Shown: positions 4,545 to 27,320, counted from the stretch's first letter. The stretch: 34,461 nt of DNA from an uncultured Smithella sp. (GCA_964351355.1 CAYGNV010000003.1:1-34461), one strand, 5' to 3'. The notes: generated by a model not told the origin, from the letters alone. Translations and numbers: made by a program.

Positions 4545-6620
4545 TCATATCCTTAGATCATCAAGAAACTCAGATGGCGAGTCGCCGCAGGTGATCAGCA
4601 ATTGATCGCGGGCGCGGGTGCAGGCGACATAGAGCAGGTGCCGCTCTGTGTTATAGACTTCTTCCAGATCGGCATCATCGCCCGCCGTTTCGATGCGCCC
4701 TTGCAGTGGGATCACTTCATCGTCACAGGCCATCACGCAAACAGCCCGGAACTCAAGCCCCTTGGCCAGATGCATCGTGCTGATAGATACTTGTCCGCTG
4801 GCTGTTTCGACTGTATCGTCGAGAATCCGATAGGCAACTTGCGATTTTTCCAGTGCCGCTTTCGCTCGCGGCAGTTGAGTATCCGAGCGGACAAACACAC
4901 CGATTTCATACGGTCGTGTGCCCTCACTGATTCTATCTGAGAGCCATTTTGCGACCGCATCTATTTCCTTCTCCTGCGAGTCGCAAACCAGAATCGCCGG
5001 TTTCGGGCCGTTAAAAACGGAAACAATACCGCGACGCTCTTCCTTGTTGCCGTCCACATCCATTATTTCTTTGCCTAAAAGTCTGTCGGCCTGCATCCGG
5101 ATTTGATGGGATGTCCGATAATTAATCCTAAGTGTCCGGGAACGTCCTCGAATATCGACACCCAGCGCCTTCCAGGAAAAAGGCTGCTGGAAAATCCGCT
5201 GCCCAAGATCACCGGCAAAGAAAAGGCTGTTTGGACGACCGGAACCCAAGGCGGCAAGAAACCGCAGTTGAGAAATGCTGATATCCTGCGCCTCGTCCAC
5301 CACAATATAATTAAAAGACAGTTTTTTGCTTTTGGTAAAATGATCCGCCAGACGGGTGAAGATGTCCGCATAGGTCAAAAGATTACCGGCTTGAAGCTTT
5401 GCGCGGACTTTTTCAAATATTAACCAGAGAATGACACGCTGCTTTTCCGGTAGCCGTGATTTTCGTCCCAGGCGACGGGCATCGCGGTATTCTTCCCAAG
5501 AATTCAGTTGCCAGGCATCCACCACATCTTTCCATTCCGTAATTAAGAAAGACAGCGGGAATTTATGACCGGAAACATCGTTTGAGGCTTCTTTCATGAT
5601 CTTGGCAATTTCCGCATCGGATGCAATGCGTGTCCGGCCATAGTTTGCTTCATAAAGCCTCAATCCAATCTCATTGAGGGCTACGCATTCCAGGCGTTCA
5701 CCTATTCGAGGCGCATTGCTGATCAGGCGTCTCATCCTCAAACGCAGAGCATTGGCCAGAGTATCTGAAAAAGTGGTTAAGAGCACACGGGCATCGGGAT
5801 TTGACCGCGCAAGAAACACGGCCCGATGAAGAGCGACGATGGTCTTGCCTGTGCCTGCCGAACCGGACACGCGCGCCGGGCCGCTATAATCTTTTTCCAC
5901 CATTTGCCGTTGCGCCGGATGGAGAAAAACAATCCATTTTTCCCAGGGGTATTCGAAGGCGCATTCCAGTTCTTCAATGTTGTGCATCGTGCGAAAACGG
6001 CGCTCGGCATCGGGATGTTTGAACGGGTCAGAACCAACGGCAGCAGGCGGCATGATTTGCGGCAGCGTTCCGGTGGCCAGACACAACAGAGCTTCCGCCG
6101 CTTCGCCAGGCAGATGGTCGGCCAATTCCAGAACTGTATCTTCGTTGGCTTTGCGCACATCATCAAGCCATTCAGGCGGCACACCGTATTTCAGCAGTTC
6201 CAAATCGGAATAATTGGCAAATAAAGGTTTCTTCTCTGAAACTGTCGACTTTGGAGCTTCGGCGTATGATGGGATGATCACTTCTTTGACGGTTTCCCGA
6301 ATCTCAACCAATTGCGCCGCTCCGGTCTGCGGGTGCGTTTCCAGCTTCCGACATTCGGCCCATTGATAAGCATGGTCATGATGAGCGACATAACATAAAA
6401 GCAGGCTGCTTTCCGTTTTATGCACAATCAAACGCAAATCGCTGCTGACACGGACAGACCAGAAGCGTTTGTCTTTTGCCTTTTCCAGTTTGTGAAACTT
6501 CATCCCCGGACTGGCCGGGTTTACTTGAAGATCAAAGGCAGTCGTTTTGACCGCTTTCTGCTCTTCGTTTGCCAGTTTGGATAAACTGTCGGTAAATGTA
6601 TCGGCAATAAGGAAGTTCAT
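4545..6620 (-). CDS. UvrD/Rep-type SF1 helicase with an N-terminal RelE/ParE-like toxin-fold domain
   Basis: 691 aa. Helicase motifs: GSAGTGKT (Walker A), VVDEAQD (II), GDLGQRIF (III), NYRTSHQI (IV), TMHLAKGLEF (V/VI) and YVACTRARD. The N-terminal ~95 aa (GMKFHKLEKAKDKRFWSVRVSSDLRLIVHKTESSLLLCYVAHHDHAY) resemble the RelE/ParE consensus. The start ATG overlaps the upstream S8 stop by 1 nt (TAATG at 6620). Confidence 0.85.
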   Translation of the reverse strand: MNFLIADTFTDSLSKLANEEQKAVKTTAFDLQVNPASPGMKFHKLEKAKDKRFWSVRVSSDLRLIVHKTESSLLLCYVAHHDHAYQWAECRKLETHPQTGAAQLVEIRETVKEVIIPSYAEAPKSTVSEKKPLFANYSDLELLKYGVPPEWLDDVRKANEDTVLELADHLPGEAAEALLCLATGTLPQIMPPAAVGSDPFKHPDAERRFRTMHNIEELECAFEYPWEKWIVFLHPAQRQMVEKDYSGPARVSGSAGTGKTIVALHRAVFLARSNPDARVLLTTFSDTLANALRLRMRRLISNAPRIGERLECVALNEIGLRLYEANYGRTRIASDAEIAKIMKEASNDVSGHKFPLSFLITEWKDVVDAWQLNSWEEYRDARRLGRKSRLPEKQRVILWLIFEKVRAKLQAGNLLTYADIFTRLADHFTKSKKLSFNYIVVDEAQDISISQLRFLAALGSGRPNSLFFAGDLGQRIFQQPFSWKALGVDIRGRSRTLRINYRTSHQIRMQADRLLGKEIMDVDGNKEERRGIVSVFNGPKPAILVCDSQEKEIDAVAKWLSDRISEGTRPYEIGVFVRSDTQLPRAKAALEKSQVAYRILDDTVETASGQVSISTMHLAKGLEFRAVCVMACDDEVIPLQGRIETAGDDADLEEVYNTERHLLYVACTRARDQLLITCGDSPSEFLDDLRI

Positions 6621-9127
6621 TAAACCTCCACAAGTACCGGAATAGAAATCATATTGGCTATAATCGTATAAAGATCTACGTCAACCCCTGGCGCGCGAAT
6701 CGAGATAATCAAAGAGTAACGTGCTGCTTTGTTGTAACCTTCTAAACGTTTTCGTGTCTTCCACCAGCCGAGTGCCGGATAGACTGCCACAACACCACGA
6801 CTGGCAAGATCAACCGCACTGCCCTTCCAAATATCTGAATGGATCGATCCTTTATGACGATTTTGTTTTCCAATTATCCAGTTTAAATCATCCCCGCCGG
6901 TACGCGTACCCTCTTCCTCATTGCGTGCTGCCGCATTGATTCTTGCACGAAAATCATCTTCTGATTCATGTTGGCGTTTGACATCAAAACGTAACCCATG
7001 AGACTCATAGCGATATCTTGAACGAACACCCCTCGCTGAAGGATTGGGCTCTATAAAATAAGATAATGTTACACGCATCTCGACCTGCGCTTCGCCAAGC
7101 GCTTCAAGTTCTGCCAACGGCCAAGGAAGTTGATGCAGATTCATATCTCTCATAGTTGGCTCTTTGCCGTCTTCACGCTGGAACGGATGTAAGGAGGATT
7201 CAACAACCATTGTAAGTGAGTTCGATACGCTCCAAATAGCGCGTTCTAAACTTGGAACACCCATGCCGCAGTGACGAACAAGCTGCGCATAATCAGTCTT
7301 TAATGGTGTGGAATTAGTTGGCAGAAACATTTTTCGCATGTCATCTGTCCATTCCGCAGAGTGCACTATCAAACCGCGTATAGTTTCTGGCCATTGTTCC
7401 GGATATGCTGCCATTAATTGAGCTGCCATGCGGGCGGCAAGAGCCATTGCTGCGCTTGTGGCATTAGTGGTTGTAAATAACCGTACATGCGGCATATGGT
7501 AAGTTGATAGAAGACTTAAACTGGACGTCCTTACTGCACTTGAATTATCTTTTGCGGCGTTGCCACCTTCGCATAATACATCTGGTTTCAATGGCCAATG
7601 TGGTTCCCATATAGTTGATGTTGAGCTGAATGGGCTTAGACCACCTTCTCGCGCAATTGCCTCATATGCGATTGTGTCCGGTTCGGTAATATTGGTAAGA
7701 TTAGTATAGGCCCCCACAGTTAAAGCATTCCATGCTTGCGCAGGGTCATGAATTCCATCCGTACTGTTGCTATTTGGATATTCCATCCATGCATTAGAAT
7801 CATCAACATTGCCAGCTGATACAACCATCAGTCGAGGTGTTTTTCCATAACCTTCTGCATCCACAGCCAGACTGTCAAGAGCAGCTGACCATGCCGAGGG
7901 ACGGCCACGATCTCTGCCATCCCTGGCGGTCACTGCCATACCGAACACACGTTGTCGGTATGGATCGGTTATTTCCGGACGTGCAACCGCTTCGATAGTC
8001 AAATAACCATGATGTTTAGAATCGCCGATATTACTACCATCAAAGGGCAACAATTTAACAGACTCCAGGCGATGTCTTATATCAATGAAATCTCTTGAAA
8101 TAAGCACATCCGTCAAATCCCCCCAAATAGCAAGACCTGCCATAGCAGTTCCGTGTCCGGCAACATCATTAGTTCCCCATGCAGGCTCTACAGTATGCAA
8201 ATCGGCATCGTTTAGAACAGGTGCAAGCAATGGGTTGCCATTATTGATTCCGGTATCTAAAAGGCAGACATAAGGCACTTGTTCGCCAGCCCCAGGAAAT
8301 TGACAACGGCCCTGTAATTCGTTCATCCAGGCGGTTTGCTCTTCGGTAGGTAATTCATCAAATAAATCAGCCGTTTCTTTTGCACGCCTGAGTTCAGCGA
8401 TACTATTTAGCACCATCATGGACCGTTTTATAGCGAACGCTGAAGTGTAAATAAGCAATATTGTCCGCTCTGGAAAATCAAGGCGACCTGGCGCAACATG
8501 GATACCGTGCGCCTCAGCCAATCTACAAAAATTCCCAACTGTAGCAGAACGGTCACTGCGCACTGGAAGCCATGCCTCCCACCAGAAAACTTCATCATCG
8601 TTTATAGGAAAAACTTCTGTATTATCTGTCCAGAGCGCTTTGAGCGTGGCAGTACGAATACTTTGAATAGTATTGATAAGCGCTTTATTATCGCGTGATC
8701 GACCTTGGGCATCTTTTTTTTCTTGAATATAGGAGGTAATTTTCTTTTCAAAATTTGTCAGTTTTCCGTCCGGCACAAAAACCGTAGCGAAGGTACGGCC
8801 TTCTTCAAAGCGTACATTCAATAACTCGATGCCTGAATTTTCCAGCGATAGGCTTTCGAAAGCTAACGTAATATCTGGAAAACTTTCAAATTCCACAGGT
8901 AAACCAAAACCATCTTCAAATCCAGCAATCTTTTGGATATTGCGGGCACTTTCAAATTCAGGCTTTAAAGAATTGATTTGCTCCAGCAAATTATTGCCAT
9001 GCTGCAGACGATCTCTTTCCTGAATTGTTGGTTTCTCAATTCTTAGTCGTGGCGTGACAAATCGTTCAGTTATGGTATAGCCTTGCAGTATAAAGTGTTT
9101 TTGCTTATTATCGGTTTGGTCGGGCAT
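6620..9127 (-). CDS. S8 (subtilisin-like) serine peptidase, IetS-like
   Basis: 835 aa with an ordered catalytic triad context: CLLDTGIN (Asp), AGHGTAMAG (His) and NATSAAMALA (Ser). There are large unassigned N-terminal (~280 aa) and C-terminal regions. RBS AAGGAG is upstream. The gene lies 21 nt after the AAA ATPase gene. Confidence 0.85.
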   Translation of the reverse strand: MPDQTDNKQKHFILQGYTITERFVTPRLRIEKPTIQERDRLQHGNNLLEQINSLKPEFESARNIQKIAGFEDGFGLPVEFESFPDITLAFESLSLENSGIELLNVRFEEGRTFATVFVPDGKLTNFEKKITSYIQEKKDAQGRSRDNKALINTIQSIRTATLKALWTDNTEVFPINDDEVFWWEAWLPVRSDRSATVGNFCRLAEAHGIHVAPGRLDFPERTILLIYTSAFAIKRSMMVLNSIAELRRAKETADLFDELPTEEQTAWMNELQGRCQFPGAGEQVPYVCLLDTGINNGNPLLAPVLNDADLHTVEPAWGTNDVAGHGTAMAGLAIWGDLTDVLISRDFIDIRHRLESVKLLPFDGSNIGDSKHHGYLTIEAVARPEITDPYRQRVFGMAVTARDGRDRGRPSAWSAALDSLAVDAEGYGKTPRLMVVSAGNVDDSNAWMEYPNSNSTDGIHDPAQAWNALTVGAYTNLTNITEPDTIAYEAIAREGGLSPFSSTSTIWEPHWPLKPDVLCEGGNAAKDNSSAVRTSSLSLLSTYHMPHVRLFTTTNATSAAMALAARMAAQLMAAYPEQWPETIRGLIVHSAEWTDDMRKMFLPTNSTPLKTDYAQLVRHCGMGVPSLERAIWSVSNSLTMVVESSLHPFQREDGKEPTMRDMNLHQLPWPLAELEALGEAQVEMRVTLSYFIEPNPSARGVRSRYRYESHGLRFDVKRQHESEDDFRARINAAARNEEEGTRTGGDDLNWIIGKQNRHKGSIHSDIWKGSAVDLASRGVVAVYPALGWWKTRKRLEGYNKAARYSLIISIRAPGVDVDLYTIIANMISIPVLVEV

Positions 9128-9148
9128 TAATAGGGAAGCACTCCTTTT

Positions 9149-10135
9149 TTATATTTTATTCTTCAATTTACCCGCAATATTCTGCCGCTCCAAAAGTGCC
9201 TGGCGAATATCCATTTCTGTGACAGACTCACGATCCTGTATGAGTGCTTCTTTAAGTACTTCCTCGGCAACTCTGGCTATTTCCGCGTAGCTCAGGCCTG
9301 ATGCCGATTCAGATAATCGCTTCCAAGAGATACCTTTGACTGAATATTGGTGTAAGCGTGAACGTAACAATGTAGCTATTTGAACATTAGCCGGCAAAGT
9401 ATAATTGAGAACGTCATCAAATCGACGAAATAAAGCATGATCGAGAATGTCCGCATGATTGGTTGCGGCAATTATCAAGCTGTGTGACTGATCTTGTTCA
9501 ATCATTTGCAAGAAACTGTTGAGCACACGACGAATCTCTCCCACATCATTAGTCAGGCCACGCTGTGAACCAATCGCATCGAATTCATCGAAAAAGTAAA
9601 TGCCACGTGTTTGTCCTGTTGCATCAAAAATCTGGCGCAATTTGGCTGCGGTTTCACCCATGAACTTAGTGATTAATCCATCTAATCGTACTTGAAATAA
9701 GGGAATGCCCAGTTCACCGGCAAGCACTGAGGCAGTAAGAGTCTTCCCTGTGCCAGGAGGTCCCATTAGCAGAAGTTTGCGACGAGGTGAAAGGCCATGT
9801 GCCAATATACGGGTAGCGTGCTTTTGCTCTCTGATAATACGTTGAATCTGTTGCTCCAATGACGCATCCAGCACCATATCGTTTAAGCGTGACTTGGGAT
9901 ATGAAACAGACAACAAATTGGCTAATTCACCACGCGGACGACTGATTGGTGTTGGTTGTCCGACCCCTTGACGTCGTTTGGCATCGTCGATCAGAAAGCG
10001 CAATTCTTCGGCTAATTTCCCATGTCCCAACTTGGCTTCCTGTGCAGCGACTTGCATGGCAACCGAAAAGAATCTTTGATCATCGCCCTCTATGTGCGAT
10101 TTAAGCATTGCTTTTAACTGATCAGCACTTGCCAT
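9149..10135 (-). CDS. AAA+ ATPase (classic AAA clade), IetA-like
   Basis: 328 aa. Motifs: Walker A GPPGTGKT, Walker B IYFFDEFD, sensor-1 IIAATN and Arg-finger region FRRFD. RBS AAGGAGG is upstream. The gene lies 27 nt after the mod stop. Confidence 0.85.
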   Translation of the reverse strand: MASADQLKAMLKSHIEGDDQRFFSVAMQVAAQEAKLGHGKLAEELRFLIDDAKRRQGVGQPTPISRPRGELANLLSVSYPKSRLNDMVLDASLEQQIQRIIREQKHATRILAHGLSPRRKLLLMGPPGTGKTLTASVLAGELGIPLFQVRLDGLITKFMGETAAKLRQIFDATGQTRGIYFFDEFDAIGSQRGLTNDVGEIRRVLNSFLQMIEQDQSHSLIIAATNHADILDHALFRRFDDVLNYTLPANVQIATLLRSRLHQYSVKGISWKRLSESASGLSYAEIARVAEEVLKEALIQDRESVTEMDIRQALLERQNIAGKLKNKI

Positions 10136-10162: not shown

Positions 10163-13100
10163 TTATACCCTAAACACCTTCATGACTTCATCACCTAAAT
10201 GATTGATGACTTTTACGGCGATGCGGCCGGATTTGGGTTTGTCGAAGGGTCGGGAAATGTCGCTGTTTAATGTTGCCCAGGCTTCTTCGTTGACCTCAGC
10301 CTTCAAGGTGGTCTTCAATGCTTTGTACGGGTCGTTTGCGCCCAGGAAATAGGCTTGGCGGACGAAGAAGCTTTCTTCGTTGTAGTCCGTGTCGATAAAC
10401 CAGCAGGCAATGCCATCGGCCCCGTCGCTGCGGACTTCGCCGGTGTTGGGGTGGAAGACATCAACGCCGTTAATTTTTACTTGAACCTGCCCACTCTCAG
10501 CATCCAGAACATCAATATCCGGTTCGCCGAAGATGATAAACAGGTTGCCTTTGCCGGTGTTCTTCAGATCGTCGGCCATATGCAGGTCGGCATTCATGCG
10601 GGCTTTGAGGACGGGGATGCGGCCCAGTTTGTTGAACTCCGAGGAATGGGCGTCGTAATTAAAGGCGCAGGTGATAAGCACGTCAAAGTCGGCATCGCCT
10701 GCCTCGCGGGCGGCGGCAACCAGATCGGGGCGGGAGACGGTTCCGAATTCAGGGCCGATGAAGATTGCGGCGCGTTTCTCGACGCCTGCCCCCGCAGCTT
10801 CACCCTCACCCTTACCCTCTCCCATCGAGGGAGAGGGAATCTTTTTTGAACCTTCCAGGTAGCGGCCTTCGGCGCAGATATAGTGTCCTGGCCACGGGGT
10901 TAATGATGTGAAGTTGATTTTATCATCCTTGTGAGCTTGCTGGACACCGGCAATTTTGAGGTTTTCCAAAATGATCTGCGTGAAGTCGCGCACCGCGCCA
11001 TAGTCGGCTAACGCTGAATCCGCGATGCCGTCGATTAATTCATCATTTTCATCAACTGTCAGAACGCGGTGAGGCAAAAGGCTCTCCACGGTGAATGGCC
11101 CGGCGACGCGGACTTTCTTTTTGTCGTCGTAAGGCTTGTCATAAAGATATTCAACGTCCGCCTTGGCGGCAATGGAGGCGTCGATTTCCTTTTGACGCTC
11201 GATGCGATATTGCCACCACTGGGCATGCAATGCTTCTGCTTCTTTCGTCACCCCGGCGAACGCCGGGGTCCAGTTGTCTTTTTCAGTTTTCTGGTTACCG
11301 GCACTCGTGCCATTCAGGGTATTCGCCGGTATGACGTCTGAGAAAGAGCGGGGGATTTCCCATTCTTCCCATGCCCTTTTTTCTCCCTCTCCCCTCGTGG
11401 GACGCGTGCCCTCCAGGGTAGAGGGTTGGGGTGAGGGGGCAACGCGCCCCAGAGCCTGATTTAGCTGTTTGCGGATGGGTTCCATCTTTTCCTGCCACTT
11501 TTCCCAGATGACATCGATCTCCGCATTGTTGGCAATGGACTTCAGTGTAATATGTGGCACGCGCTCATAGATAAAACCCTGACGGATGTCGCCGCGTATG
11601 GGCGCTGTTGATGGCTCTTTGCGGCTTATTTCGGCTTCCTTGATTTGACCGTCACGGCTATCGGCTAATAGATAATAAGGATAGCGTGCGCCCATGATGC
11701 GAGCACGGGCCAGGGCAAGCGCCACGCGGGACGTGTCGATGGTGATCCAGCGGCGTCCCCATTGCTCGGAAACGTATGTGGTCGTGCCTGAGCCACAGGT
11801 AGGATCGAGGACAAGATCGCCGGGGTCAGTGGACATTAGAATGCAGCGTTCAACTAGTTTCGGTGACGTCTGCACAACGTATGTGCGATCAGACAAAAAA
11901 CTATGTACGCAGTCCTGCCAGATGTTGTTTACAGGTCTTGCCGCAAAATCCTGGATGAAAGATTGAAACCACAAGTTATTGCCCTGTTTGACGACACGCC
12001 CAGCGTTAATGACCCGACGCATTCCTTCTTCACTAGTACGCCAGACTCGTCGGCCCGGACGATGTTCCATGCCCGCGAAGGCAATGGGATAACGTGTTGT
12101 ATCAACGCCTGAGGCGGAAGTAAGGTCTTGCAGGGACATGACACGACCACCTTTTTTTAAAAGCTCCGCAATATCATCGTCTGACGTGATTCGCCTTCTC
12201 GTCCCTTCTTGAAAGATCCAAACATATTGAGATGCACCATCTTCTCCGAATTCTTTAGGAAGATAAGGTTGGCGATACTTAAGTTTCTCAACATCTTTTG
12301 CGAACCAAAGAACAACGTCATAGACACTGGCTACCGAACTGGTATGCCCCGAAATACTGCTTGCCCCCGTAGTCTTCTGGAAAATAATGTCTGACACATG
12401 ATTTCTGTCCCCAAACACTTCATCCATCAACGCCCTTACGCGGTGGACGTTCTCATCCCCAATCTGGACAAAGATCGAACCACTTTCCGTCAATAAATCC
12501 CGTGCCACGGTCAGGCGGTCGCGCAGATACGTCAGATAGGAATGAATTCCATCGCGCCAGGTATCACGGAAAGCTTTGACCTGCTCCGGCTCGCGGGTGA
12601 TGTGGTCAGTGTTCCCATCTTTAACATCGCGGCTGGTGGTGGACCACTGGAAGTTGGAGTTGAACTTGATGCCGTAAGGCGGGTCGAAATAAATGCACTG
12701 CACCTTGCCGCGCAGACCTTCGCGCTCGGTCAGGCTGGCCATGACTTGGAGGCTGTCGCCCAGGATCATGCGGTTGGTCCAGTTGGCGTCGTGCTGGTAG
12801 AACTCGGTTTTGGCGGCTTCGGTCGGGATGCCGTTAAAATCGGCAAAAAGATCGTTTTGATAACCGGCCGTTTGCGAATTACTACTGGCCGTTTGTCGCA
12901 GCAGGTCGTCAATCAGCACTTTCGGATGGACTTTTTCCTGAATATAAATAGGCGGCGCGTTCACCACCAGGTCAGACCAGTCCTGCTCATCCTTACCGCG
13001 CCAGACCAGTTGCGGATCGAGATCGCGGTTGCGGTTTGCTTTTTCTTCTTCGTGCCCGGCAGCGCCACGCGGCAGGGTTACGGACAGTGTGTCTTGCGCT

Positions 13101-13207
13101 TCCTTTTGCAGCACGGATTGAAACTCGGCGGTGGGAATGTTTTTTCGCTTGGCTTCATCGTGCGTTAGCGTTTCGATTGTTTTATTATTTGTCTTTTTTT
13201 GTTTCAC
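10163..13207 (-). CDS. mod: Type III restriction-modification DNA methyltransferase (Mod), beta-class amino-methyltransferase
   Basis: 1014-aa ORF with a GTG start. Motif IV IYFDPPYG (aa 172-179) precedes motif I VLDPTCGSGTT. That order is typical of Type III Mod. The N-terminal NRDLDPQLVWRGKDEQDWSDLVV block is as in Mod proteins that partner with this Res family. The gene contains two inserted palindromic elements, listed as separate features. Confidence 0.85.
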   Translation of the reverse strand: MKQKKTNNKTIETLTHDEAKRKNIPTAEFQSVLQKEAQDTLSVTLPRGAAGHEEEKANRNRDLDPQLVWRGKDEQDWSDLVVNAPPIYIQEKVHPKVLIDDLLRQTASSNSQTAGYQNDLFADFNGIPTEAAKTEFYQHDANWTNRMILGDSLQVMASLTEREGLRGKVQCIYFDPPYGIKFNSNFQWSTTSRDVKDGNTDHITREPEQVKAFRDTWRDGIHSYLTYLRDRLTVARDLLTESGSIFVQIGDENVHRVRALMDEVFGDRNHVSDIIFQKTTGASSISGHTSSVASVYDVVLWFAKDVEKLKYRQPYLPKEFGEDGASQYVWIFQEGTRRRITSDDDIAELLKKGGRVMSLQDLTSASGVDTTRYPIAFAGMEHRPGRRVWRTSEEGMRRVINAGRVVKQGNNLWFQSFIQDFAARPVNNIWQDCVHSFLSDRTYVVQTSPKLVERCILMSTDPGDLVLDPTCGSGTTTYVSEQWGRRWITIDTSRVALALARARIMGARYPYYLLADSRDGQIKEAEISRKEPSTAPIRGDIRQGFIYERVPHITLKSIANNAEIDVIWEKWQEKMEPIRKQLNQALGRVAPSPQPSTLEGTRPTRGEGEKRAWEEWEIPRSFSDVIPANTLNGTSAGNQKTEKDNWTPAFAGVTKEAEALHAQWWQYRIERQKEIDASIAAKADVEYLYDKPYDDKKKVRVAGPFTVESLLPHRVLTVDENDELIDGIADSALADYGAVRDFTQIILENLKIAGVQQAHKDDKINFTSLTPWPGHYICAEGRYLEGSKKIPSPSMGEGKGEGEAAGAGVEKRAAIFIGPEFGTVSRPDLVAAAREAGDADFDVLITCAFNYDAHSSEFNKLGRIPVLKARMNADLHMADDLKNTGKGNLFIIFGEPDIDVLDAESGQVQVKINGVDVFHPNTGEVRSDGADGIACWFIDTDYNEESFFVRQAYFLGANDPYKALKTTLKAEVNEEAWATLNSDISRPFDKPKSGRIAVKVINHLGDEVMKVFRV
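10803..10837 (+). repeat. GC-rich palindromic element, copy 1, in-frame inside mod
   Basis: The plus strand reads CCCTCACCC-TTA-CCCTCTCCC-ATCGA-GGGAGAGGG, a perfect 9-bp stem with a 5-nt loop. In the mod frame it encodes ...PSPSMGEGKGEGE... Confidence 0.75.
11385..11437 (-). repeat. GC-rich palindromic element, copy 2, in-frame inside mod and inverted relative to copy 1
   Basis: The minus strand reads CCCTCACCC-CAA-CCCTCTACCC-(21 nt containing ACGCGT)-GGGGAGAGGG. It has the same module order as copy 1 but lies on the other strand. In the mod frame it encodes ...PSPQPSTLEGTRPTRGEGE... Confidence 0.75.
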
Positions 13208-13256: not shown

Positions 13257-14612
13257 CTATTCAATCACTTCCCAATGTCCGCCTTTGGCCGGGCCGACGC
13301 GCCGCAAACAGCCGATTCTTTGAAGCGTTTGAATATTACGCTCAATGGTCCGCTCTGTCACCTCAATGAGCGCTGATAATTCCGGAATCGTGATTCGCTG
13401 ATTCCGGCGGATTTCATCCAATATTTTCCCCGACGTTTTCCCCGACGTTTTCCCCGACATTTTCCCCGGCGTTTTCTCCGAAATCACACCAACTTTATCA
13501 GTGATGCCCTTTTGCAATCCTTTCCTCCGGAATCGCGCCACAAACAGCATTGAGCCTACCTCTTCGAACTCCGTCGCCGGCTCCTTCGCTAAAATCAGCT
13601 TGATGCCGCGGCCCCATTTCTCAATCAGATGCCGGCGCTGGAAGAGATCCGCCAGAAGTTCATTGCGCCGCATCGAAACCATCTTTTCCCGGATATCGGA
13701 AATGGTCAGTCCGCCATAAAGCAGGCCGGGGTTGCGAATTTCCAGACGATCCTTAAAGACAGCAATGTTAACCGAATCGTATTCGCGGTAATCCCGATGA
13801 CAAAAAGCATTGATGATGGCCTCGCGAAAGGCTTCCCGGTCAATCTCGGGAACATCCACACGCAACAGACCTTCCACACGCATACCGATATTGATATGCT
13901 CCAGAATATACTCTTCGGCCTTCTCGATGAGCGTAAAGACATCGCCCGTGATGTCTTTCATGTCCAGCGTAACGGTTGTGTCTGCTGTTCCAAACGTGGC
14001 GCAACGCAATTTGGCATTGGCAAAGAATTTCTCGGGGCTTTTGCCAAAACAGATAACGGCCGCGTTTCGTATCTTATGTTTCTTGATCAGGTTGAGTTTG
14101 TCGAGGGCGTTTTGAAGAGTATCGTATTTGAGCCCGCAGGATTTCAGAAACCGTTTCAGTTTAGCGCTGCTGATATCATCCGGTGTTGCCTGGGGGCAGA
14201 TTTCCGTATCCCAGCGCAGGCGGTCACGGTTTTTTTCCAGGATGAAATTTTCCAGTTCCTTGGCGCTTAACTGCCGGTCCTCATCACCCACCCGGCTGTA
14301 AGCCCGTCCATAGGCGTAATAAGGCGTTTCTTTACCTTCCACCTGCACCCGGATGCAAGGCTTGCCATCCATTGTCACTTTTTCAACGGAAGGATAAATC
14401 TTGGGTTCGATATGATCGCCGATTGTCCGGGAGACTTCCCTCAAACTGGCCTCGGAGATATTCTGACCAACGGCGGTTCCATCATTCTTGATCCCAAACC
14501 ACAACTCGCCGCGCTGATGCTTATTGAGCATGGCTGACAGAGAAACAATGCCCGCCTTCAATTCACTGGTGGATTTCTTCAGTTCTAAAGTTTCCGATTC
14601 AATCAATTGCAT
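13257..14612 (-). CDS. AlbA_2/Schlafen-like domain plus HATPase_c_4-like domain plus C-terminal winged-HTH protein (putative ATP-binding regulator/sensor)
   Basis: The track ORF extends to a TTG at 14693, overlapping the res stop. I prefer the ATG at 14612 (MQLIESETLELKKS...). N-terminus: ESETLELKKS...GELWFGIKNDGTAVG (AlbA_2-like). Middle: INAFCHRDYREYDSVNIAVFKDRLEIRNPG. C-terminus: RITIPELSALIEVTERTIERNIQTLQRIGCLRRVG (wHTH). Confidence 0.75.
   Translation of the reverse strand: MQLIESETLELKKSTSELKAGIVSLSAMLNKHQRGELWFGIKNDGTAVGQNISEASLREVSRTIGDHIEPKIYPSVEKVTMDGKPCIRVQVEGKETPYYAYGRAYSRVGDEDRQLSAKELENFILEKNRDRLRWDTEICPQATPDDISSAKLKRFLKSCGLKYDTLQNALDKLNLIKKHKIRNAAVICFGKSPEKFFANAKLRCATFGTADTTVTLDMKDITGDVFTLIEKAEEYILEHINIGMRVEGLLRVDVPEIDREAFREAIINAFCHRDYREYDSVNIAVFKDRLEIRNPGLLYGGLTISDIREKMVSMRRNELLADLFQRRHLIEKWGRGIKLILAKEPATEFEEVGSMLFVARFRRKGLQKGITDKVGVISEKTPGKMSGKTSGKTSGKILDEIRRNQRITIPELSALIEVTERTIERNIQTLQRIGCLRRVGPAKGGHWEVIE
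13424..13483 (-). repeat. 12-bp tandem repeat (TTTTCCCCGACG x5, the last two copies degenerate) inside the AlbA_2 gene
   Basis: Units lie at 13424, 13436, 13448, 13460 and 13472. On the coding strand they encode the linker ...KTPGKMSGKTSGKTSGK... between the HATPase-like domain and the wHTH. Confidence 0.85.
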
Positions 14613-14673
14613 TTCTTCCCTTTTATGGGTTCCCGCCAAAAGCCTGCGGGAAGGTATATGATTTTTCCCTTCT

Positions 14674-17600
14674 TCATCTGATAGCCTTCTCAATCATCTT
14701 GTTGAACTCTTCTTCTACCTTGGCTTTAAAATCAGATTCAATTTGATAGACTTCCGTCAATTCGGCAAAGGCCCAGCGGCCATATTGCCCGTTGTTGTTG
14801 ACGCCGGGAATCCAGTAGTTTTCCATGGTCGATTTCTTTTCCTTGGCGTCCTCGCGGCGATAGCCTTTGATTTCCACGATCTGGTTCAGAAGGTCTTTCT
14901 CGCCGTGGCCATCATCCACCCGAACGATAAAGTCGGGAAGATAGAGGCGCTTTTGCGAACCGAAATTATAAGGCACTTCCAATCCAAGGCTGTGATTTTT
15001 GACATAGGATTTTACCTGCGGATGCGATTCCGCCACGCGGCAGAATTCGGCCTCCCAGTCGCTGTCCAGAATCACCCAGTTGACTTGACAGCGCCGTGCA
15101 TCCGTTTCCCAGCGGTCGGTTCTGGAGGTGTTGAAGTTTACATGCATGGTGGAGCCGGTCGGGTTATAGCTATCCAGCACGGCGACAATGGGGTTCTTTC
15201 CTTCCAGTGAACGGGTGATGCCATCCGTGATACGATTGCAAGCCATATCGGCAAGGTCCTGATACATGAGCTGGGCGGGATAGGCGCCGCCTTTGCAAAT
15301 CAGACAATGGTCAAGCCAATCCTTGGTAATACGTTTCAACTGACCGAATAAATGATACTTGGGATCTTCACCCGTGTCGCGCCATTTGCTCTCCAGCAGT
15401 CGTTTGGTGAGATGAAACAAAAGCGTGGAGCGGCGAAGATCACCGGTATGGACAAGGGTTAAGTCAACCATCTCGCCAATGATGCCTTGATTTCTGGTAT
15501 TGGTCGGCCCGACAAGATCGGGCGTCAAATCCAGAACCGAATCAGCGTTAAATTCGGCGGTCAGCTTTTCCTGCGGCAGATCGACGCGATAGCCCGCCAC
15601 GCGGGGAAAGCGGATTTCCAGATGATCGCGCTCCGGACGCACAGCCTTGACCCGGATGGTTTCGCGGGGCGGTTGCGGCGGAGCGATGACCGGTTTGGCG
15701 GTAAAGTCAAACGGTATGCCCAGCACGTCGGCATATTCGACATTGAACAGGCCATCATCATTAAGATCATACGATTGTCGGCGCAGGGCGCGGCCAATGA
15801 CCTGTTCACATAAAAGCTGGGTGCCGAAAGCGCGGACACCCAAAACATGCGTGACCGTATTGGCGTCCCAACCTTCCGTGAGCATGGATACGGATACGAC
15901 ACAGCGGATGGACTCGCCAAGTCTATCTTTCTTGCCGACGGTGTTCATGACTTCCCGAAGCAAATCCTGATCGGTGAGGTTCTCTGCCTGGCTGCGGTCT
16001 CCGGTGCGTTCAATGATTTCCCGACGAAAGCGTTCGATTTCCAAGCTTGCCATCGCGCGGAAATTATCGTCAAGGGCATCGCCGGATTCCAGTTGTTCAC
16101 TGTCGATCAGCAATGTGCGCGGTCTGGCCAGAGGATTGCCGTATTCATCAAAGTTTGAAAACAAGGCAAATTTACCTAAAAACGGCGGCGGTGCAACACC
16201 ATCAGCACGAACGGGATGTTCAAAGCCGGACATGTAATCGTAAACCAGCTTGGAGGTGGATGTATTGTTGCAGACGACAATAAAGCAGGGCGGCAATTTC
16301 ATGCCGTTTTCCTGCCACAGGTTGTATGTCTTTTCATAATGGCCATAGAGCGCTTCCAATGCGGTCTGAAGCCGGGTGGGAAGTTTAAGAGGATCAAGCG
16401 CCGCGCTTTTGCCCCGGCCTTTCTTCGGCATATCCTTGCGGATATGCTCCCAGAGGTTGCGAAACATCGGCATTTCCATACCGGGGATATTGTCCGCAAC
16501 TGGAACACGCGGCAATTTGACGATGCCGCATTCAATGGCGTCCATTAAAGAAAAGTCGCACATTGTCCATGGAAACAGGGTGCCTTCGGCATAACCGGAA
16601 CCCCGCAAGAAAAAAGGCGTGGCGGATAAATCGATGACTTGTGTCAGGCCAATTTTGCGGTTGATCATTTCAAGACCGGTTATCCAGAGTCGCGCCGCTT
16701 CATTATTCTTTTCTGCTTCTTTTCGATCATCGCCTTTGAGCTCTTCTTCATCATCCTGTTCGGGTTTTTCCCGGTAGCAATGGTGCGCTTCGTCGTTCAT
16801 TGCCAGAATGTTTTTCATGCCCATCAGTTCCGGCATGACGCGCTGAATCATCTGCCCTTCGGTTTCGAGCGTTTTGAGTTCTTCACCGCCTCTGCCCTGA
16901 AGCAGCGATCGCCCGCCCCTGGACAGCTCCATGCGGTCACGCAATTTGAAGGCGTGATAATTGGTGACAACAATCTTGGCCCGCTCCAGATCGCGCATCA
17001 TATCGCCGGGCACAAGCTCGCGGCTCCGATAGTAGCTGTCCGGATCGTTGGGTTGGAGAACACGCAGCCGGTCTTTGATGGTTATGCCGGGGGTAACGAC
17101 CAGAAAACCACGTGTAAATTTTTTGCTGTTGGGACGGCGCACGGCATTAACGGTCTGCCAGATGATCAGCATGGCCATAACCGTGGTCTTGCCTGTTCCG
17201 GTGGCAAGTTTGAGCGCCAGACGCATCAGGTTGGGATTGGCGTCATTATTGGCATTGGCCAGATGTTCAAGAAAAGCTTTTCCTGCTTTTTCACCGGGAG
17301 CAACCTCGGTCAGCCAGATGGCCGTCTCCACGGCTTCGATCTGACAATAGAAAGGGCGGAGAGTGTTAAACTGGTGATGTCGCCAATGCTTAAGCAATCG
17401 GGCGGTTTCCGGCGTTACTTTCCAGTCATTGGGATTAGAAAAACTGCGCCACTTGTCCACGTGATAACGCAGGTCATTAATGACGGGTGTGGGATCGTAC
17501 CGTTGTTTCTGCGTGGATAAGCCTTTTCCCTCGTCAAATACTATGTTTGACTGGACTGTTGCTGTTTTACGTTTTTTGGGCTTGGGAATCGGCGTAATAA

Positions 17601-17727
17601 ACTCGGCACGGCGACGCTTTTCGATGATCTGTTGCGTTGGCTGGCCCTGCGCATCGAGTTCCCAATGACGCTGGGGATATTCATAGGGGGAATTTAGTAT
17701 GGGTTTTTCAAAAAAGAGATTTTCCAT
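14674..17727 (-). CDS. res: Type III restriction endonuclease Res subunit (SF2 DEAH helicase plus C-terminal PD-(D/E)xK nuclease)
   Basis: The track ORF opens with GTG at 17733. I prefer the ATG at 17727 (MENLFFEKPILNSPYEYP...), which is preceded by GAAGGTGA. Motifs: LATGTGKT, MNDEAHH, MLTEGWDA, QVIGRALRR, and YLPDF...IVEIKG near the C-terminus. Confidence 0.9.
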   Translation of the reverse strand: MENLFFEKPILNSPYEYPQRHWELDAQGQPTQQIIEKRRRAEFITPIPKPKKRKTATVQSNIVFDEGKGLSTQKQRYDPTPVINDLRYHVDKWRSFSNPNDWKVTPETARLLKHWRHHQFNTLRPFYCQIEAVETAIWLTEVAPGEKAGKAFLEHLANANNDANPNLMRLALKLATGTGKTTVMAMLIIWQTVNAVRRPNSKKFTRGFLVVTPGITIKDRLRVLQPNDPDSYYRSRELVPGDMMRDLERAKIVVTNYHAFKLRDRMELSRGGRSLLQGRGGEELKTLETEGQMIQRVMPELMGMKNILAMNDEAHHCYREKPEQDDEEELKGDDRKEAEKNNEAARLWITGLEMINRKIGLTQVIDLSATPFFLRGSGYAEGTLFPWTMCDFSLMDAIECGIVKLPRVPVADNIPGMEMPMFRNLWEHIRKDMPKKGRGKSAALDPLKLPTRLQTALEALYGHYEKTYNLWQENGMKLPPCFIVVCNNTSTSKLVYDYMSGFEHPVRADGVAPPPFLGKFALFSNFDEYGNPLARPRTLLIDSEQLESGDALDDNFRAMASLEIERFRREIIERTGDRSQAENLTDQDLLREVMNTVGKKDRLGESIRCVVSVSMLTEGWDANTVTHVLGVRAFGTQLLCEQVIGRALRRQSYDLNDDGLFNVEYADVLGIPFDFTAKPVIAPPQPPRETIRVKAVRPERDHLEIRFPRVAGYRVDLPQEKLTAEFNADSVLDLTPDLVGPTNTRNQGIIGEMVDLTLVHTGDLRRSTLLFHLTKRLLESKWRDTGEDPKYHLFGQLKRITKDWLDHCLICKGGAYPAQLMYQDLADMACNRITDGITRSLEGKNPIVAVLDSYNPTGSTMHVNFNTSRTDRWETDARRCQVNWVILDSDWEAEFCRVAESHPQVKSYVKNHSLGLEVPYNFGSQKRLYLPDFIVRVDDGHGEKDLLNQIVEIKGYRREDAKEKKSTMENYWIPGVNNNGQYGRWAFAELTEVYQIESDFKAKVEEEFNKMIEKAIR

Positions 17728-17811
17728 GTTCACTTCTTCACCTTCAGCTTTGCGGCAGATCCTGATAGCGGCAGTCCAAAATTTGATGAGAATTTACTTA
17801 TGACGGCACGG

Positions 17812-17840
17812 AGTATAAGAAGAACGAACGCGCATGTCAA
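17812..17840 (-). promoter_or_regulatory. Near-consensus sigma-70 promoter for the res-led operon
   Basis: The minus strand reads TTGACA (17840-17835), a 17-nt spacer (TGCGCGTTCGTTCTTCT), then TATACT (17817-17812). It lies about 85 nt upstream of the res ATG. The -35 lies inside the right copy of the 17-nt repeat. Confidence 0.6.
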
Positions 17841-18630: not shown

Positions 18631-19968
18631 ATGTCGGAAGAAATTAAGAACAAAGGCTGGACGGTTGCTTCTGCCGGAACGGGAATTAATCTTGCGCTTG
18701 GAATTCTCTATGCATGGAGCATTTTTAAGGGCGCGATAGAAAAGTCTATTAACGCAGGCGGAGAAGGCGCATTTAACTGGGATCTTGCAAAACTGAACGA
18801 TCCCTATTCGGTGTGCTGTCTTGCTTTTGCATTTTCCATGATTCTTGCCGGAAAGTGTCAGGATAAATTCGGCCCCAGAGTCACCGCATTTCTCGGCGGC
18901 ATTATGGTAGGATTGGGACTTCTGTTGATTTCTCAGACCTCAAGCTATATCTACTGGGTCCTCGGGTTTGGTTTAATGGTTGGCACAGGAATCGGCTTTG
19001 GCTATTCTTCGGCCACGCCACCGGCTCTCAAGTGGTTTCCGGCCGCGAAAACAGGCCTGATCGCTGGTCTTGTTGTTGCCGGCTTTGGTCTTGCTTCAGT
19101 CTGGAGCGCGCCGTTGGCAGAATATTTATTGAAGGCATACGGCATCCACCAGGCCATGATGATATTTGGCGGTTTATTTGTGGTTGTGGTGTGCGGACTC
19201 TCCCTGTTTTTGGTCAACCCTCCCGCAGGTTATGTGCCCGGCGGTGCAGCAGCTCAATTGGCGGCAGCCTCCGCCCCGAAAAATGATGCCCCTCCCTCCG
19301 TCATGATGAAATCAGACTATTTCTGGACGCTCTGGATCATTTATTTTATCGCAGCAGGCGTTGGCCTGATGATTATTGGAAGCGTCAGCGGCATGGCCAA
19401 GAAGAGCATGGGAGATTCAGCCTTCATAGCGGTTGTGATTCTTGCCATCGGCAATGCCGCCGGCCGCATTGTGGCCGGTATTGTATCGGATAAAATCGGT
19501 CGCAAAACCACGCTAGTGGGCGTTCTGCTCCTTCAGGCGGCTTTAATGATTGCAGCCATTTCCCTCGTTGGTTCCGCAACAACCAGCGCTCTGTGGATTG
19601 TTCTTTTGGCAACATTTATCGGCTTTAACTACGGCGCAAACCTGTCGCTGTTTCCGGCATTAACCAAAGATCGTTGGGGTTTGAAATCCTTTGGCATGAA
19701 CTATGGCATTCTGTTTACGGCATGGGGCATTGGCGGTTTTGTCATGAGCAGAATGCAGCAGATGCTGACCGCGTCAACCGGCAGCTTCACCTCGTCGTTC
19801 ATCATTGCCACGATTCTACTCATCCTCGCTACCGTGGTTACCCTCACGCTCAAAACGGCCGAGCCGGTTGCAGTTCCAGTTCCAGAAGGCGCTATCTTCC
19901 AGCCACAGCTTGGTTTAACCATGGCGGACGGTGGTGAAAAAATAGAAGAAGACGATAAGAAGAAATAA
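18631..19968 (+). CDS. MFS transporter (oxalate/formate antiporter-like family)
   Basis: 445 aa and highly hydrophobic, with about 12 predicted TM segments. The layout is typical of MFS/OFA-like transporters (GKCQDKFGPR loop after TM2, SDKIGRK loop in the second half). A strong RBS GAAGGAGG is upstream. Confidence 0.8.
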   Translation: MSEEIKNKGWTVASAGTGINLALGILYAWSIFKGAIEKSINAGGEGAFNWDLAKLNDPYSVCCLAFAFSMILAGKCQDKFGPRVTAFLGGIMVGLGLLLISQTSSYIYWVLGFGLMVGTGIGFGYSSATPPALKWFPAAKTGLIAGLVVAGFGLASVWSAPLAEYLLKAYGIHQAMMIFGGLFVVVVCGLSLFLVNPPAGYVPGGAAAQLAAASAPKNDAPPSVMMKSDYFWTLWIIYFIAAGVGLMIIGSVSGMAKKSMGDSAFIAVVILAIGNAAGRIVAGIVSDKIGRKTTLVGVLLLQAALMIAAISLVGSATTSALWIVLLATFIGFNYGANLSLFPALTKDRWGLKSFGMNYGILFTAWGIGGFVMSRMQQMLTASTGSFTSSFIIATILLILATVVTLTLKTAEPVAVPVPEGAIFQPQLGLTMADGGEKIEEDDKKK

Positions 19969-19980
19969 AACCAATCAACC

Positions 19981-20020
19981 CCTTGGATGCCGCCAACGCC
20001 TGCGGGGGCGGCATCCAAGG
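19981..20020 (+). terminator. Perfect 14-bp stem hairpin after the MFS gene
   Basis: CCTTGGATGCCGCC (19981-19994), a 12-nt loop, then GGCGGCATCCAAGG (20007-20020), 13 nt after the MFS stop. There is no U-tract, so it may attenuate or stabilise the transcript rather than act as a classical intrinsic terminator. Confidence 0.45.
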
Positions 20021-20033
20021 AAAATATTACGGT

Positions 20034-20840
20034 ATGCGTGGCAACAAAATGACAGGGCGGACGGCGATGAGAAAACAAGAATATCAGATGATACCTGCGG
20101 AAGAAAAAAAGTGTATCTGGATGACTACCGGCCTGATTTCCTATAAGCTGTGCGCCCTCGATTACCTGTGTGAGGAGTGCCTGTTTGACCAGGTCATGCG
20201 AAATGAAATGAACGTCCAGGTAAGCCGGACAGTTCAACCCGCCGCTGTGGATGTTGGTGTAATCACCTGCGCAGCCGCACCCCAGGCCAGCAATGCGCTG
20301 TTCTACCACCAGAACCACTGCTGGGCAAAAGTTGAAGACCCTGACGAGGTGCGTATCGGCATGGACAGCATCCTTGCCAGACTTGTTGCCAACATTAAAA
20401 CCGTTGTGCTTCCTCAACAGGGAGAAATCGTAACACAGGGACAGTGCTTTGCGCATGTTATCCTGGCAAAACACATTCTGCAGCTCGTCTCGCCTGTTTC
20501 GGGCACTGTCGCAACTGTCAATCCGGAATTGAGAAAAAATCCTCAATTGCTTGTCCGTGCGCCCTGGGATAAGGGTTGGCTGGCGACCATTAAACCGGAC
20601 AACTTGGAGCAGGATTTGCGATCGCTCCTGTTCGGCAAAAAAGCGCTTGCGTGGTATCAGGGTAAAGAACAGATCGTCGCGCGCATGGGCGCGGCAACGC
20701 TTAATGAAAACAGCGCAGCGCTCGGCCCTACGCTGCAGGACGGCGGTGAGCCGATGCCCTGTTTTGTCAATGGGCTTTCCTCGGAACAGTTTGACCAGAT
20801 TATCGAATCCCTTTCCCGGACTGAAAATCCTGCAATCTAG
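20034..20840 (+). CDS. GcvH-like (glycine-cleavage H / lipoyl-domain fold) protein with an N-terminal 4-Cys motif
   Basis: The track ORF starts at 19983, inside the hairpin. The in-frame ATGs at 20034, 20049, 20067 and 20088 are more plausible starts. N-terminal motif: C-x12-C-x5-C-x2-C (CIWMTTGLISYKLCALDYLCEEC). The C-terminal half, HCWAKVEDPDEVRIGMD...CFAHVILAKHILQLVSPVSGTVATVN...WDKGWLATIK, aligns by eye with E. coli GcvH (EHEW...[21 protein letters not shown]...GGWIFKIK). Confidence 0.65.
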   Translation: MRGNKMTGRTAMRKQEYQMIPAEEKKCIWMTTGLISYKLCALDYLCEECLFDQVMRNEMNVQVSRTVQPAAVDVGVITCAAAPQASNALFYHQNHCWAKVEDPDEVRIGMDSILARLVANIKTVVLPQQGEIVTQGQCFAHVILAKHILQLVSPVSGTVATVNPELRKNPQLLVRAPWDKGWLATIKPDNLEQDLRSLLFGKKALAWYQGKEQIVARMGAATLNENSAALGPTLQDGGEPMPCFVNGLSSEQFDQIIESLSRTENPAI

Positions 20841-21363
20841 GGCGCAGATCGTGCATACACCGGGAACAAAATTCATCTGACTTTTGATCAATATCTTCTA
20901 CATAGGTTGAAGAATTCAGCACACACGCCGGGGTTGTGCAGTGCAAGAGCCCGAATGTATGTCCCAGCTCATGAATGGATTCTTTAATCAGCCGATCCAC
21001 CAGAAGCGCCCGGTTATCAGGCAGTCCGTAGAATTTGTTTTCCAGCCGATGCGACGAAACAACCGAGCTAATGCCGTCCAGTTGCGCCTCGCCGAAAACA
21101 AACGTCAGAATGGGAATAAACAGATCCACCTCGGCGACCCCGAGAATCTTGCCGGGGCTTGCGGGAGGATTGCCAATAAGCTGAAGAAGGATTTCAGAGG
21201 AATTGTATTGATTTCGGGCTCTGTCGTAGGCTCTCGGAAGATCTATCGGCCATTTTCCGGCGAATCTGGTTTCTATGCCGAATGCCTTCTCTATGCCCGA
21301 TTCTAAGGGTTCGCGCCAGAATCGAGAAGCCGCATGGATGGGCACAACGTAGATATAGGCCAT
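20800..21363 (-). CDS. Archaemetzincin-family (peptidase M54) zinc metalloprotease
   Basis: 187 aa. HELGHTFGLLHC...CVLN...CSRC matches the archaemetzincin signature HExxHxxGxxHC plus a distal CxxC. The gene lies 19 nt downstream of the response regulator gene. Its 3' end overlaps the convergent GcvH-like ORF by 41 nt. Confidence 0.8.
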   Translation of the reverse strand: MAYIYVVPIHAASRFWREPLESGIEKAFGIETRFAGKWPIDLPRAYDRARNQYNSSEILLQLIGNPPASPGKILGVAEVDLFIPILTFVFGEAQLDGISSVVSSHRLENKFYGLPDNRALLVDRLIKESIHELGHTFGLLHCTTPACVLNSSTYVEDIDQKSDEFCSRCMHDLRPRLQDFQSGKGIR

Positions 21364-21382
21364 AATCAGACATTCACGGTTA

Positions 21383-27307: not shown

Positions 27308-27320
27308 AACGGATAGCCAA

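Follow-up and report, generated by a model that had tools for sequence, protein, structure and literature searches.

An IetAS pair as probable exchangeable cargo in a Type III-like restriction-modification operon that ends with an ArmD-like helicase gene

In this study, we analyzed three co-directional genes on the minus strand of a 34,461-nt stretch of DNA from an uncultured Smithella sp. (GCA_964351355.1, CAYGNV010000003.1:1-34461), the whole of which is referred to here as the window. The genes occupy positions 4545-10135 and encode an AAA+ ATPase, an S8 subtilase and a helicase of the UvrD type. We consider it probable, at roughly 70%, that the ATPase and subtilase genes are an IetAS pair carried as exchangeable cargo within a Type III-like restriction-modification (R-M) operon, of which an ArmD-like helicase gene is the regular last member. 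The interval would then not be one module but the 3′ half of an operon of six genes, all on the minus strand (17733 to 4545), and the helicase would belong with the restriction (res) and modification (mod) genes, its grouping with IetAS being wrong. An earlier, sequence-only reading had proposed an undescribed three-gene defence module in which the helicase is a third IetAS component. Direct reading of the DNA bore out the gene order, the junctions and the motifs on which that proposal was built, and the defence role assigned to the locus is supported. The module itself is not supported, since IetS and IetA homologues accompany only 9 and 7, respectively, of the 80 helicase loci compared below. 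The genes had also been placed merely behind a Type III R-M system; the location after such a system is correct, but because mod ends only 27 nt upstream of ietA, they are the tail of one longer operon.

The conserved res-mod-helicase frame

Relatives of the helicase were picked by helicase peptides alone, in a scan with one genome per species, and neighbouring genes played no part in their choice. At least 600 stretches matched the peptides and at least 560 of these encode a helicase relative, representing at least 560 species. The best 80 of the at least 560 helicase loci (L001-L080; 64-72% identity to the window helicase) formed the neighbourhood set, which spans Desulfobacterota, Acidobacteriota, Nitrospirota, Planctomycetota, Bacteroidota, Spirochaetota, Chloroflexota, Firmicutes and many other groups. 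Six-frame open reading frames (ORFs) of the 80 loci were searched with the window proteins, and genes were identified with Pfam, PADLOC and NCBIfam profiles. Homologues of Mod were found in 60 loci and of Res in 39, with the low counts for IetS and IetA given above. Many of the contigs are short, and the frequency of Mod and Res was judged on the 39 loci with at least 9 kb upstream of the helicase gene, where Mod is present in 37 and Res in 33. Both are always co-directional with the helicase gene, in the order res, mod, helicase. The sequence-only reading would have led one to expect a conserved ATPase/S8 neighbourhood around helicase homologues; the neighbourhood that is conserved is that of Mod and Res instead.

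The frame consists of res, a slot, mod, a second slot and the helicase gene, and its genes are 64-80% identical across phyla. Slot sizes, and whether a slot is empty or occupied, were determined on the 58 loci with a visible Mod, and the gap between res and mod on 35 loci. Mod abuts the helicase gene directly in 12/58 loci, usually by a TGATG or TAATG overlap. The bare trio is carried by a conjugative plasmid of Pseudomonas avellanae (NZ_CP091148, 18967-27027), on which RefSeq labels the three products "BPTD_3080 family restriction endonuclease", "site-specific DNA-methyltransferase" and "3'-5' exonuclease". Among 12 plasmids with a Res at least 50% identical, 10 also carry a close helicase; the remaining two belong to Methylibium, and in the one inspected a Tn3 transposase gene lies directly after res. 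Distances between helicases are correlated with those between the accompanying Mod proteins (r = 0.43, Mantel p = 0.002), and no such correlation holds between helicase distances and IetS distances (r = 0.01, n = 7).

The fixed last-gene position, the overlap with Mod when the slot is empty and the co-divergence with Mod all bear on a different explanation, in which the helicase acts autonomously, as a defence or toxin protein encoded by a single gene, or is the mere conserved flank of an insertion hotspot beside methylase systems. Such autonomy would suit a protein that combines, within a single chain, a motor with a putative effector domain, and PADLOC does list UvrD fusions such as NERD+UvrD as candidate stand-alone systems, the NERD+UvrD model being the best PADLOC match of the window helicase (1.3e-29). 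Two loci without Mod within 10 kb and the uncorrelated helicase and Res distances point in the same direction. The three features named above are nevertheless at odds with it, as is the fact that the same architecture is fixed in the last position of ARMADA type II, where its deletion abolishes the defence of the whole system (PMC12458937; PMC13463889), and we regard this explanation as unlikely.

Several points weigh against our assignment of the helicase to the res-mod operon and of IetAS to its cargo. The two loci mentioned, L004 and L069, show no Mod in 10 kb of upstream sequence. The correlation between helicase and Res distances is not significant (r = 0.14), and as not even Mod and Res are correlated (r = 0.03), the power of the mirror-tree test is low. 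The helicase may be missing from more distant BPTD_3080-family systems. IetAS is the most frequent identifiable cargo, being found at 9/80 loci in two subtypes; because of this frequency, and because a helicase-dependent variant, ietHAS, exists (PMC13069673), functional cross-talk between IetAS and the helicase is conceivable. RNase activity of the N-terminal domain would be putative for the window helicase and ArmD alike. Finally, synteny and translational coupling suggest a partnership of the helicase with Res and Mod, and would fall short of proving it.

Exchangeable slots and the IetAS pair

The slot between mod and the helicase gene is occupied in 46/58 loci, with a median size of 1.9 kb and a maximum of 7.9 kb, and its genes are almost always co-directional with the frame. 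The 101 slot proteins fall into 64 sequence clusters, representatives of which were identified by PADLOC as SIR2+HerA (4e-157 and 3e-266), HamA+HamB of Hachiman (1e-127 and 2e-245), Dsr1 (1647 bits), LmuA+LmuB of Lamassu, AbiP2, a 1715-aa PrimPol-RT, HEC-06/DndB-like proteins, Ppl and an OLD/AriA-like ATPase. For several recurrent cassettes, neither Pfam nor PADLOC gave any match. One of these, a set of three genes (~254, 182 and 140 aa), occupies this slot in at least seven species (L020:270-1955, L014, L019, L022, L031, L057 and L063) and may represent a new defence system; a related cassette lies in L025.

Turnover of cargo is evident even between close relatives. Loci whose helicases are 84-88% identical to that of the window keep res, mod and the helicase gene, while other genes replace IetAS: pairs encoding 588 and 213 aa or 641 and 212 aa, or an AAA_13 protein with a 107-aa protein. 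The pair of 588-641 and ~212 aa stands in place of IetAS in L087 (7518-9973), L090 (7373-9980), L091 and L092, and neither of its proteins has a Pfam match. The slot between res and mod behaves in a similar way. The res-mod gap exceeds 300 nt in 14/35 loci, and the genes found there include those for a DUF4062/HATPase_c_4/Fic_C protein, a DUF3800 protein (in the 84-88% relatives) or a UPF0175+DUF3368 pair.

In the window, the cargo between mod and the helicase gene is ietA (9149-10135, minus strand; 328 aa), followed after a 21-nt spacer with an AAGGAG ribosome-binding site (9128-9148) by ietS (6620-9127, minus strand; 835 aa). IetAS was reportedly described as an ATPase plus S8 protease anti-phage system by Gao et al. 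in 2020. The ATPase matches the PADLOC IetA profile at 9.3e-77 over residues 3-320, nearly its full length, and Pfam AAA at 2.7e-30; the protease matches PADLOC IetS at 7.8e-35 over residues 98-782 and Pfam Peptidase_S8 at 1.2e-51. Walker A and B are intact in IetA, with the motifs GPPGTGKT (aa 125-132), IYFFDEFD (179-186), IIAATN (221-226) and FRRFD (236-240), and IetS has the Asp/His/Ser triad motifs in order (LLDTGIN, 289-295; GHGTAMAG, 324-331; NATSAAMA, 555-562). Judged by profiles and motifs, the gene pair at 6620-10135 is a complete IetAS, as the sequence-only reading had recognized. That reading had left large N- and C-terminal regions of the protease unassigned; since the IetS family profile spans residues 98-782, these parts are typical of IetS. 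Both proteins score under the NCBIfam equivalog ("Ite") cut-offs (210.7 vs. 510 bits for IetA with model IteA, 66.8 vs. 900 bits for IetS), and on that account the pair is taken as a divergent IetAS subtype.

IetAS was first described as a plasmid-stabilizing toxin-antitoxin pair, with the S8 protease as the toxin and the AAA ATPase as the antitoxin, and its anti-phage mechanism is stated to be unknown (PMC13069673). The subtype of IetS seen in the window (51-55% identity, full length) was found on 439 plasmids, mostly Klebsiella IncF plasmids and those of Agrobacterium, Rhizobium and Burkholderia. Any helicase homologue, counted at E ≤ 1e-30, is present on 47 plasmids, so that at most 47 of the 439 could carry one and at least 392 are without. 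Three of these plasmid regions were inspected, and each has a two-gene ATPase/S8 pair flanked by insertion sequence (IS) elements or unrelated genes, with no helicase gene beside it. The window pair shares with IetAS the adjacent co-directional ATPase and S8 protease genes, near-full-length profile matches and intact catalytic motifs, but differs in sitting within an R-M operon, translationally coupled to the next gene.

This coupling is one argument for regarding IetA, IetS and the RelE-like helicase as one system, in which the helicase would either sense nucleic acids or be a substrate of the S8 protease and have its toxin domain set free by that enzyme under ATPase control. At 6620 the ietS/helicase junction reads GGAGGTTTAATG, the TAA stop and ATG start overlapping by 1 nt, and the junction recurs in L018, L027 and L065. 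However, in 40/64 loci the end of the upstream gene, whichever gene it is, lies within -4 to +30 nt of the helicase ATG, and 1-nt overlaps with that ATG involve Mod at four loci, IetS at three and unrelated cargo (e.g., Dsr1 and HerA) at five. The stop/start overlap is not specific to IetS, and the coupling is generic. Similarly, the commonness of IetAS among recognizable cargo, together with a second, divergent subtype directly upstream of the helicase gene in L059 (3024-6347; IetA 36% identical, IetS E 2e-21; no Mod in the 6.4 kb available upstream), has to be set against 71/80 helicase loci without IetAS, the 12 loci with nothing between mod and the helicase gene, and the replacement of IetAS in the 84-88% relatives. 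Other occupants of the slot (Hachiman, Lamassu, Dsr1 and SIR2-HerA) are known to work alone, and the plasmid survey shows the same subtype of IetS mostly without a helicase.

The precedent for such a system is ietHAS, a variant of IetAS that needs an added helicase, IetH, which also tempers toxicity (PMC13069673). The window resembles it in having an IetAS pair beside a helicase gene in one operon. IetH, however, is SNF2/DrmD-like (PMC13069673) and hence of a different family from the UvrD/ArmD-like helicase of the window, which is placed after ietS and which comparative genomics links to res-mod rather than to IetAS. Pfam and NCBIfam searches gave no SNF2 domain in the window operon, and the only helicase beside ietAS is of the UvrD/superfamily 1 (SF1) type, so the locus is not an ietHAS. 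Taken together, we find a three-component IetAS-helicase system improbable.

The helicase ATG marks the exact point from which the loci are conserved in sequence. The first ~30 nt of the gene (ATGGAATTCCGCATCGCCGACAC...) are conserved at the nucleotide level across phyla in L001-L080, while upstream sequences are unrelated between loci with different cargo. When the 70 nt upstream of the ATG were aligned by eye for repeats or an att-like sequence, no conservation was seen once cargo is present. Conserved flanks such as the helicase 5′ end might allow cassettes to be exchanged through homologous recombination. On the neighbour-joining tree of the helicases the cargo types are scattered; as the tree is star-shaped and lacks support values, no firm conclusion is drawn on how many insertions took place. 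The scatter, the exact boundary and the high identity of the frame genes across phyla might also be expected if the helicase served recombination that swaps cassettes between the mod and helicase flanks, and not immunity. Flanking homology alone can explain the swapping, though; the slots of the helicase loci share no conserved integrase, transposase or repeat boundary, the window has no tRNA gene, and the role of ArmD in defence has been demonstrated (PMC12458937). A role in cargo exchange is therefore very improbable in our judgment.

Domains of the helicase and layout of the operon

The helicase gene (4545-6620, minus strand) encodes 691 aa and can be divided into three parts. The C-terminal part (aa 233-691 plus the stop codon; 4545-5924) is a UvrD/GajB-like SF1 core, which matches Pfam UvrD-helicase (5e-19), UvrD_C (9e-19) and AAA_19 as well as GajB-type PADLOC models (1e-25), and contains Walker A (GSAGTGKT, 253-260, with K259) and Walker B (VVDEAQD, 440-446, with D442). 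It is preceded by a conserved, largely helical middle domain (aa 96-232; 5925-6335). Of the domain plan in the sequence-only reading, the RelE-like N-terminus and the UvrD core stand and the "~130-aa linker" between them does not: the segment is conserved in the family, with many invariant columns, and is shared with ArmD, and therefore is no mere linker.

The N-terminal domain (aa 1-95; 6336-6620) was modelled separately. A full-length AlphaFold2 (AF2) model from a 15-sequence alignment had a mean predicted local distance difference test score (pLDDT) of 61.7 and was unfit for a fold search; a model of residues 1-100 from a 30-sequence alignment (pLDDT 88.5; predicted template-modelling score, pTM, 0.81) was therefore compared with the PDB by Foldseek. 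The top matches were YoeB (2a6r; E 6.4e-6, TM 0.62/0.73), RelE (3bpq) and YafQ. All 30 PDB matches at E ≤ 1e-3 are RelE, YoeB, YafQ or related toxins. ParE and HigB ranked lower than the top matches, and the Foldseek output also includes the CARF-RelE fusion Cami1. In the model, the chain runs from a beta-alpha-alpha unit through an antiparallel sheet to a C-terminal helix, the topology of the RelE/ParE fold. Based on the model, the domain is a RelE/ParE-superfamily fold nearest to the RNase branch (YoeB/RelE/YafQ), in agreement with what had been proposed from the sequence. Profile searches with the sequence stayed below threshold (Pfam HigB-like, E 0.0032, 18.3 bits vs. a cut-off of 27; ParE_like, E 0.22), and matches to PDB profiles of RelE3 (E 0.77) and YoeB (E 1.3) were weak but in the correct register.

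The catalytic residues of YoeB are E46, R65, H83 and Y84. In an alignment across both helicase clades, that of the window and that linked to ARMADA, R63, H81, A84, Y85 and W87 are invariant and H43, R57 and H80 nearly so. Extending the HMMER register of the YoeB match places R63 and H81 opposite R65 and H83 of YoeB, and H43, which is Glu in ArmD, lies near E46. No cognate antitoxin gene stands beside the domain, the upstream gene being ietS in the window and mod or other cargo at the other helicase loci. A search with the first 100 residues gave 2154 matches, the best 150 of which are all 57-81% identical and mostly shorter than 691 aa; these are apparently fragments of the same helicase family, and the closest stand-alone toxins were not revealed among these best 150.

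The analysis establishes the gene identities, the fold, the conserved frame, the turnover of cargo and the generic coupling, and these features suggest how the operon might work. Mod would mark host DNA by methylation, and Res would restrict unmodified DNA in an ATP-dependent manner. By analogy with ArmD, whose ATPase is required in ARMADA II, the helicase would join Res and Mod as an ATP-driven motor on DNA, and interference would either require this motor or be strengthened by it. The RNase-type N-terminal domain of the helicase, in which YoeB-like catalytic positions appear to be kept, would probably be auto-inhibited within the protein and might deliver a translation-directed second blow. 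IetAS would be an independent toxin-antitoxin-like or abortive-infection layer that shares with the frame only transcription and translational coupling.

The remainder of the operon lies upstream of ietA. A candidate sigma-70-like promoter, TTGACA-17-TATACT (17812-17840, minus strand), matches the consensus at 11/12 positions ~80 nt upstream of the res start. It is the best such site in the region by consensus match only, the total of sigma-70-like sites there not being above the shuffled expectation; the six-gene operon is probably transcribed from it, and sequence matches gave no convincing minus-strand terminator inside the operon. The res gene (14674-17733, minus strand) encodes a BPTD_3080-family, Type III-like restriction subunit of 1019 aa that scores 1376 bits with the NCBIfam equivalog NF046055 (cut-off 800), matches Pfam ResIII and RE_endonuc, and contains superfamily 2 (SF2) ATPase motifs (ATGTGKT and NDEAHH) and a C-terminal PD-(D/E)xK motif (LPDF...VEIKG). 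The slot between res and mod holds a 478-aa gene (13257-14693, minus strand) identified through Pfam as AlbA_2 (Schlafen-like)/HATPase_c_4/winged helix-turn-helix, which overlaps the 3′ end of res by 20 nt and has homologues in 5/80 helicase loci. The mod gene (10163-13207, minus strand) encodes a long Type III methyltransferase of 1014 aa (PADLOC MTase_III PDLC03632, 1339 bits; Pfam N6_N4_Mtase, 1.5e-33) of the N6A/N4C beta class, with DPPY (FDPPYG) and S-adenosylmethionine (SAM)-binding (DPTCGSGTT) motifs. The GC content is 0.43-0.445 over ietA and the 5′ part of ietS (window 8001-10000) relative to ~0.52 in mod and res, a dip that is consistent with a foreign insert. ORF translations revealed no integrase gene beside the operon.

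A more distant BPTD_3080-family operon, with a Res 45% identical, lies on plasmid pAQ5 of Picosynechococcus PCC 7002 (L098; NC_010479: 29469-38071). Its order is res, a UPF0175+DUF3368 pair, mod and a gene for a 624-aa protein with a cytidine/dCMP-deaminase domain, and the locus ends with the end of the circular record. In the window itself, the region 18631-34461, judged from translations alone, appears to contain ordinary housekeeping genes of an anaerobe, including those for an MFS-type (major facilitator superfamily) transporter, a sigma-54 response regulator and histidine kinase, a P-type ATPase, a phosphoketolase-like protein, a catalase-peroxidase and rubrerythrin.

Significance and relation to known defence systems

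IetAS, ArmD-type helicases and the presence of accessory defence genes within methylation-based loci have all been described (PMC12707154 and PMC12839542 for the last). We found no description in the open-access literature of a res-mod-ArmD-like operon with two slots and a wide phyletic spread, nor any account there of an association between Type III systems and RelE-UvrD helicases, and the name BPTD_3080 occurs in no searchable paper. Our analysis corrects an attractive three-gene grouping, in that IetAS would be ordinary cargo and the unusual helicase would be that of the restriction system. It would also mean that the recently described ArmD helicase occurs beyond ARMADA II, in a second class of methylation-based systems that is very widespread, which points to a general accessory role of the RelE-fold helicase in restriction. 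In addition, two insertion points are located precisely, each between highly conserved genes, where known systems alternate with many genes that lack annotation; such anchors have already been fruitful in the search for new defence systems. A bolder proposal, possible though doubtful, is that the operon is a widespread, horizontally mobile docking platform, whose helicase is a shared DNA-sensing motor or RNase effector engaged in cross-talk with the systems inserted there, IetAS among them. A shared role is suggested because the helicase is translationally coupled to any slot occupant and because the same architecture serves ARMADA II. If the proposal were true, the slot genes without annotation would form a rich and already sorted reservoir of new defence systems.

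The sequence-only reading had considered the RelE-UvrD architecture undescribed, but it matches that of ArmD in ARMADA type II (PMC12458937). The window helicase is 32% identical to ArmD of E. coli O157:H7 over its full length (E 4e-98), and ArmD K266 corresponds to K259 of the window protein. The two share a RelE-like N-terminal domain, the conserved middle region and a GajB/UvrD-like SF1 core, and each is encoded by the last gene of a methyltransferase-containing defence operon; in O157:H7, the ArmD gene closes a four-gene cluster beside Druantia III, which is the ARMADA type II locus. Deletion of any arm gene, or the ArmD K266A substitution, abolishes defence (PMC12458937), and the requirement for armD was confirmed in an mBio paper of 2026 (PMC13463889). 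Other distant full-length homologues (31-37% identity) are encoded last, after a large N6-methyltransferase and a DEAD/DEAH protein of ~2000 aa, in Thermus, Pseudanabaena and Microvirga; the homologue on an E. coli IncY plasmid has only the DEAD/DEAH gene annotated upstream. The partners differ, however. Those of ArmD are ArmA (BrxHII/SNF2), ArmB (a PglX-like methyltransferase) and ArmC (a YprA-like DEAD/DEAH protein of ~2000 aa), and the window helicase has as its partners a Type III Res and an N6/N4 Mod of the beta class. Neither a YprA-like nor an SNF2 protein is encoded in the window, which accordingly does not carry the ArmA/ArmB/ArmC set. Neither of the two papers mentions Type III or BPTD_3080 partners for ArmD (PMC12458937; PMC13463889). 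The helicases also form distinct clades, identity within that of the window being ~65-70% across phyla and only ~31-37% relative to the ARMADA-linked one. Membership of ARMADA itself, and of DISARM, was rejected for lack of the partner genes in the operon, and Gabija was rejected likewise: GajB profiles match the SF1 core at 1e-25, but the operon has no GajA (OLD-type nuclease).

With classical Type III R-M systems of the EcoP15I type, the operon has in common a Res that combines an SF2 ATPase with a PD-(D/E)xK nuclease, a Mod with DPPY and SAM-binding motifs, and co-directional genes in the order res, mod. It departs from them in its much longer Mod (1014 aa), in its conserved third gene for the helicase, and in tolerating inserts on either side of mod, towards res as well as towards the helicase gene. 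As for the helicase, Cami1 of type III CRISPR systems (a CARF-RelE fusion; PDB 8phj) offers a parallel for a RelE fold fused to a sensor or motor domain with no antitoxin pairing, although the partner in the window is an SF1 helicase rather than CARF and there is no cyclic-oligoadenylate context. A parallel for the cargo is found in accessory defence genes inside methylation-based loci, such as PrrC in the EcoprrI Type IC system, BrxU in a BREX island and back-up BREX effectors (PMC12707154; PMC12839542). There, as here, independent defence genes are nested in, and co-transcribed with, a restriction or BREX operon and provide layered immunity. The present operon differs in being Type III-like with an ArmD-like gene and two defined slots, and in that its occupants are whole multi-gene systems of many kinds that turn over between close relatives.

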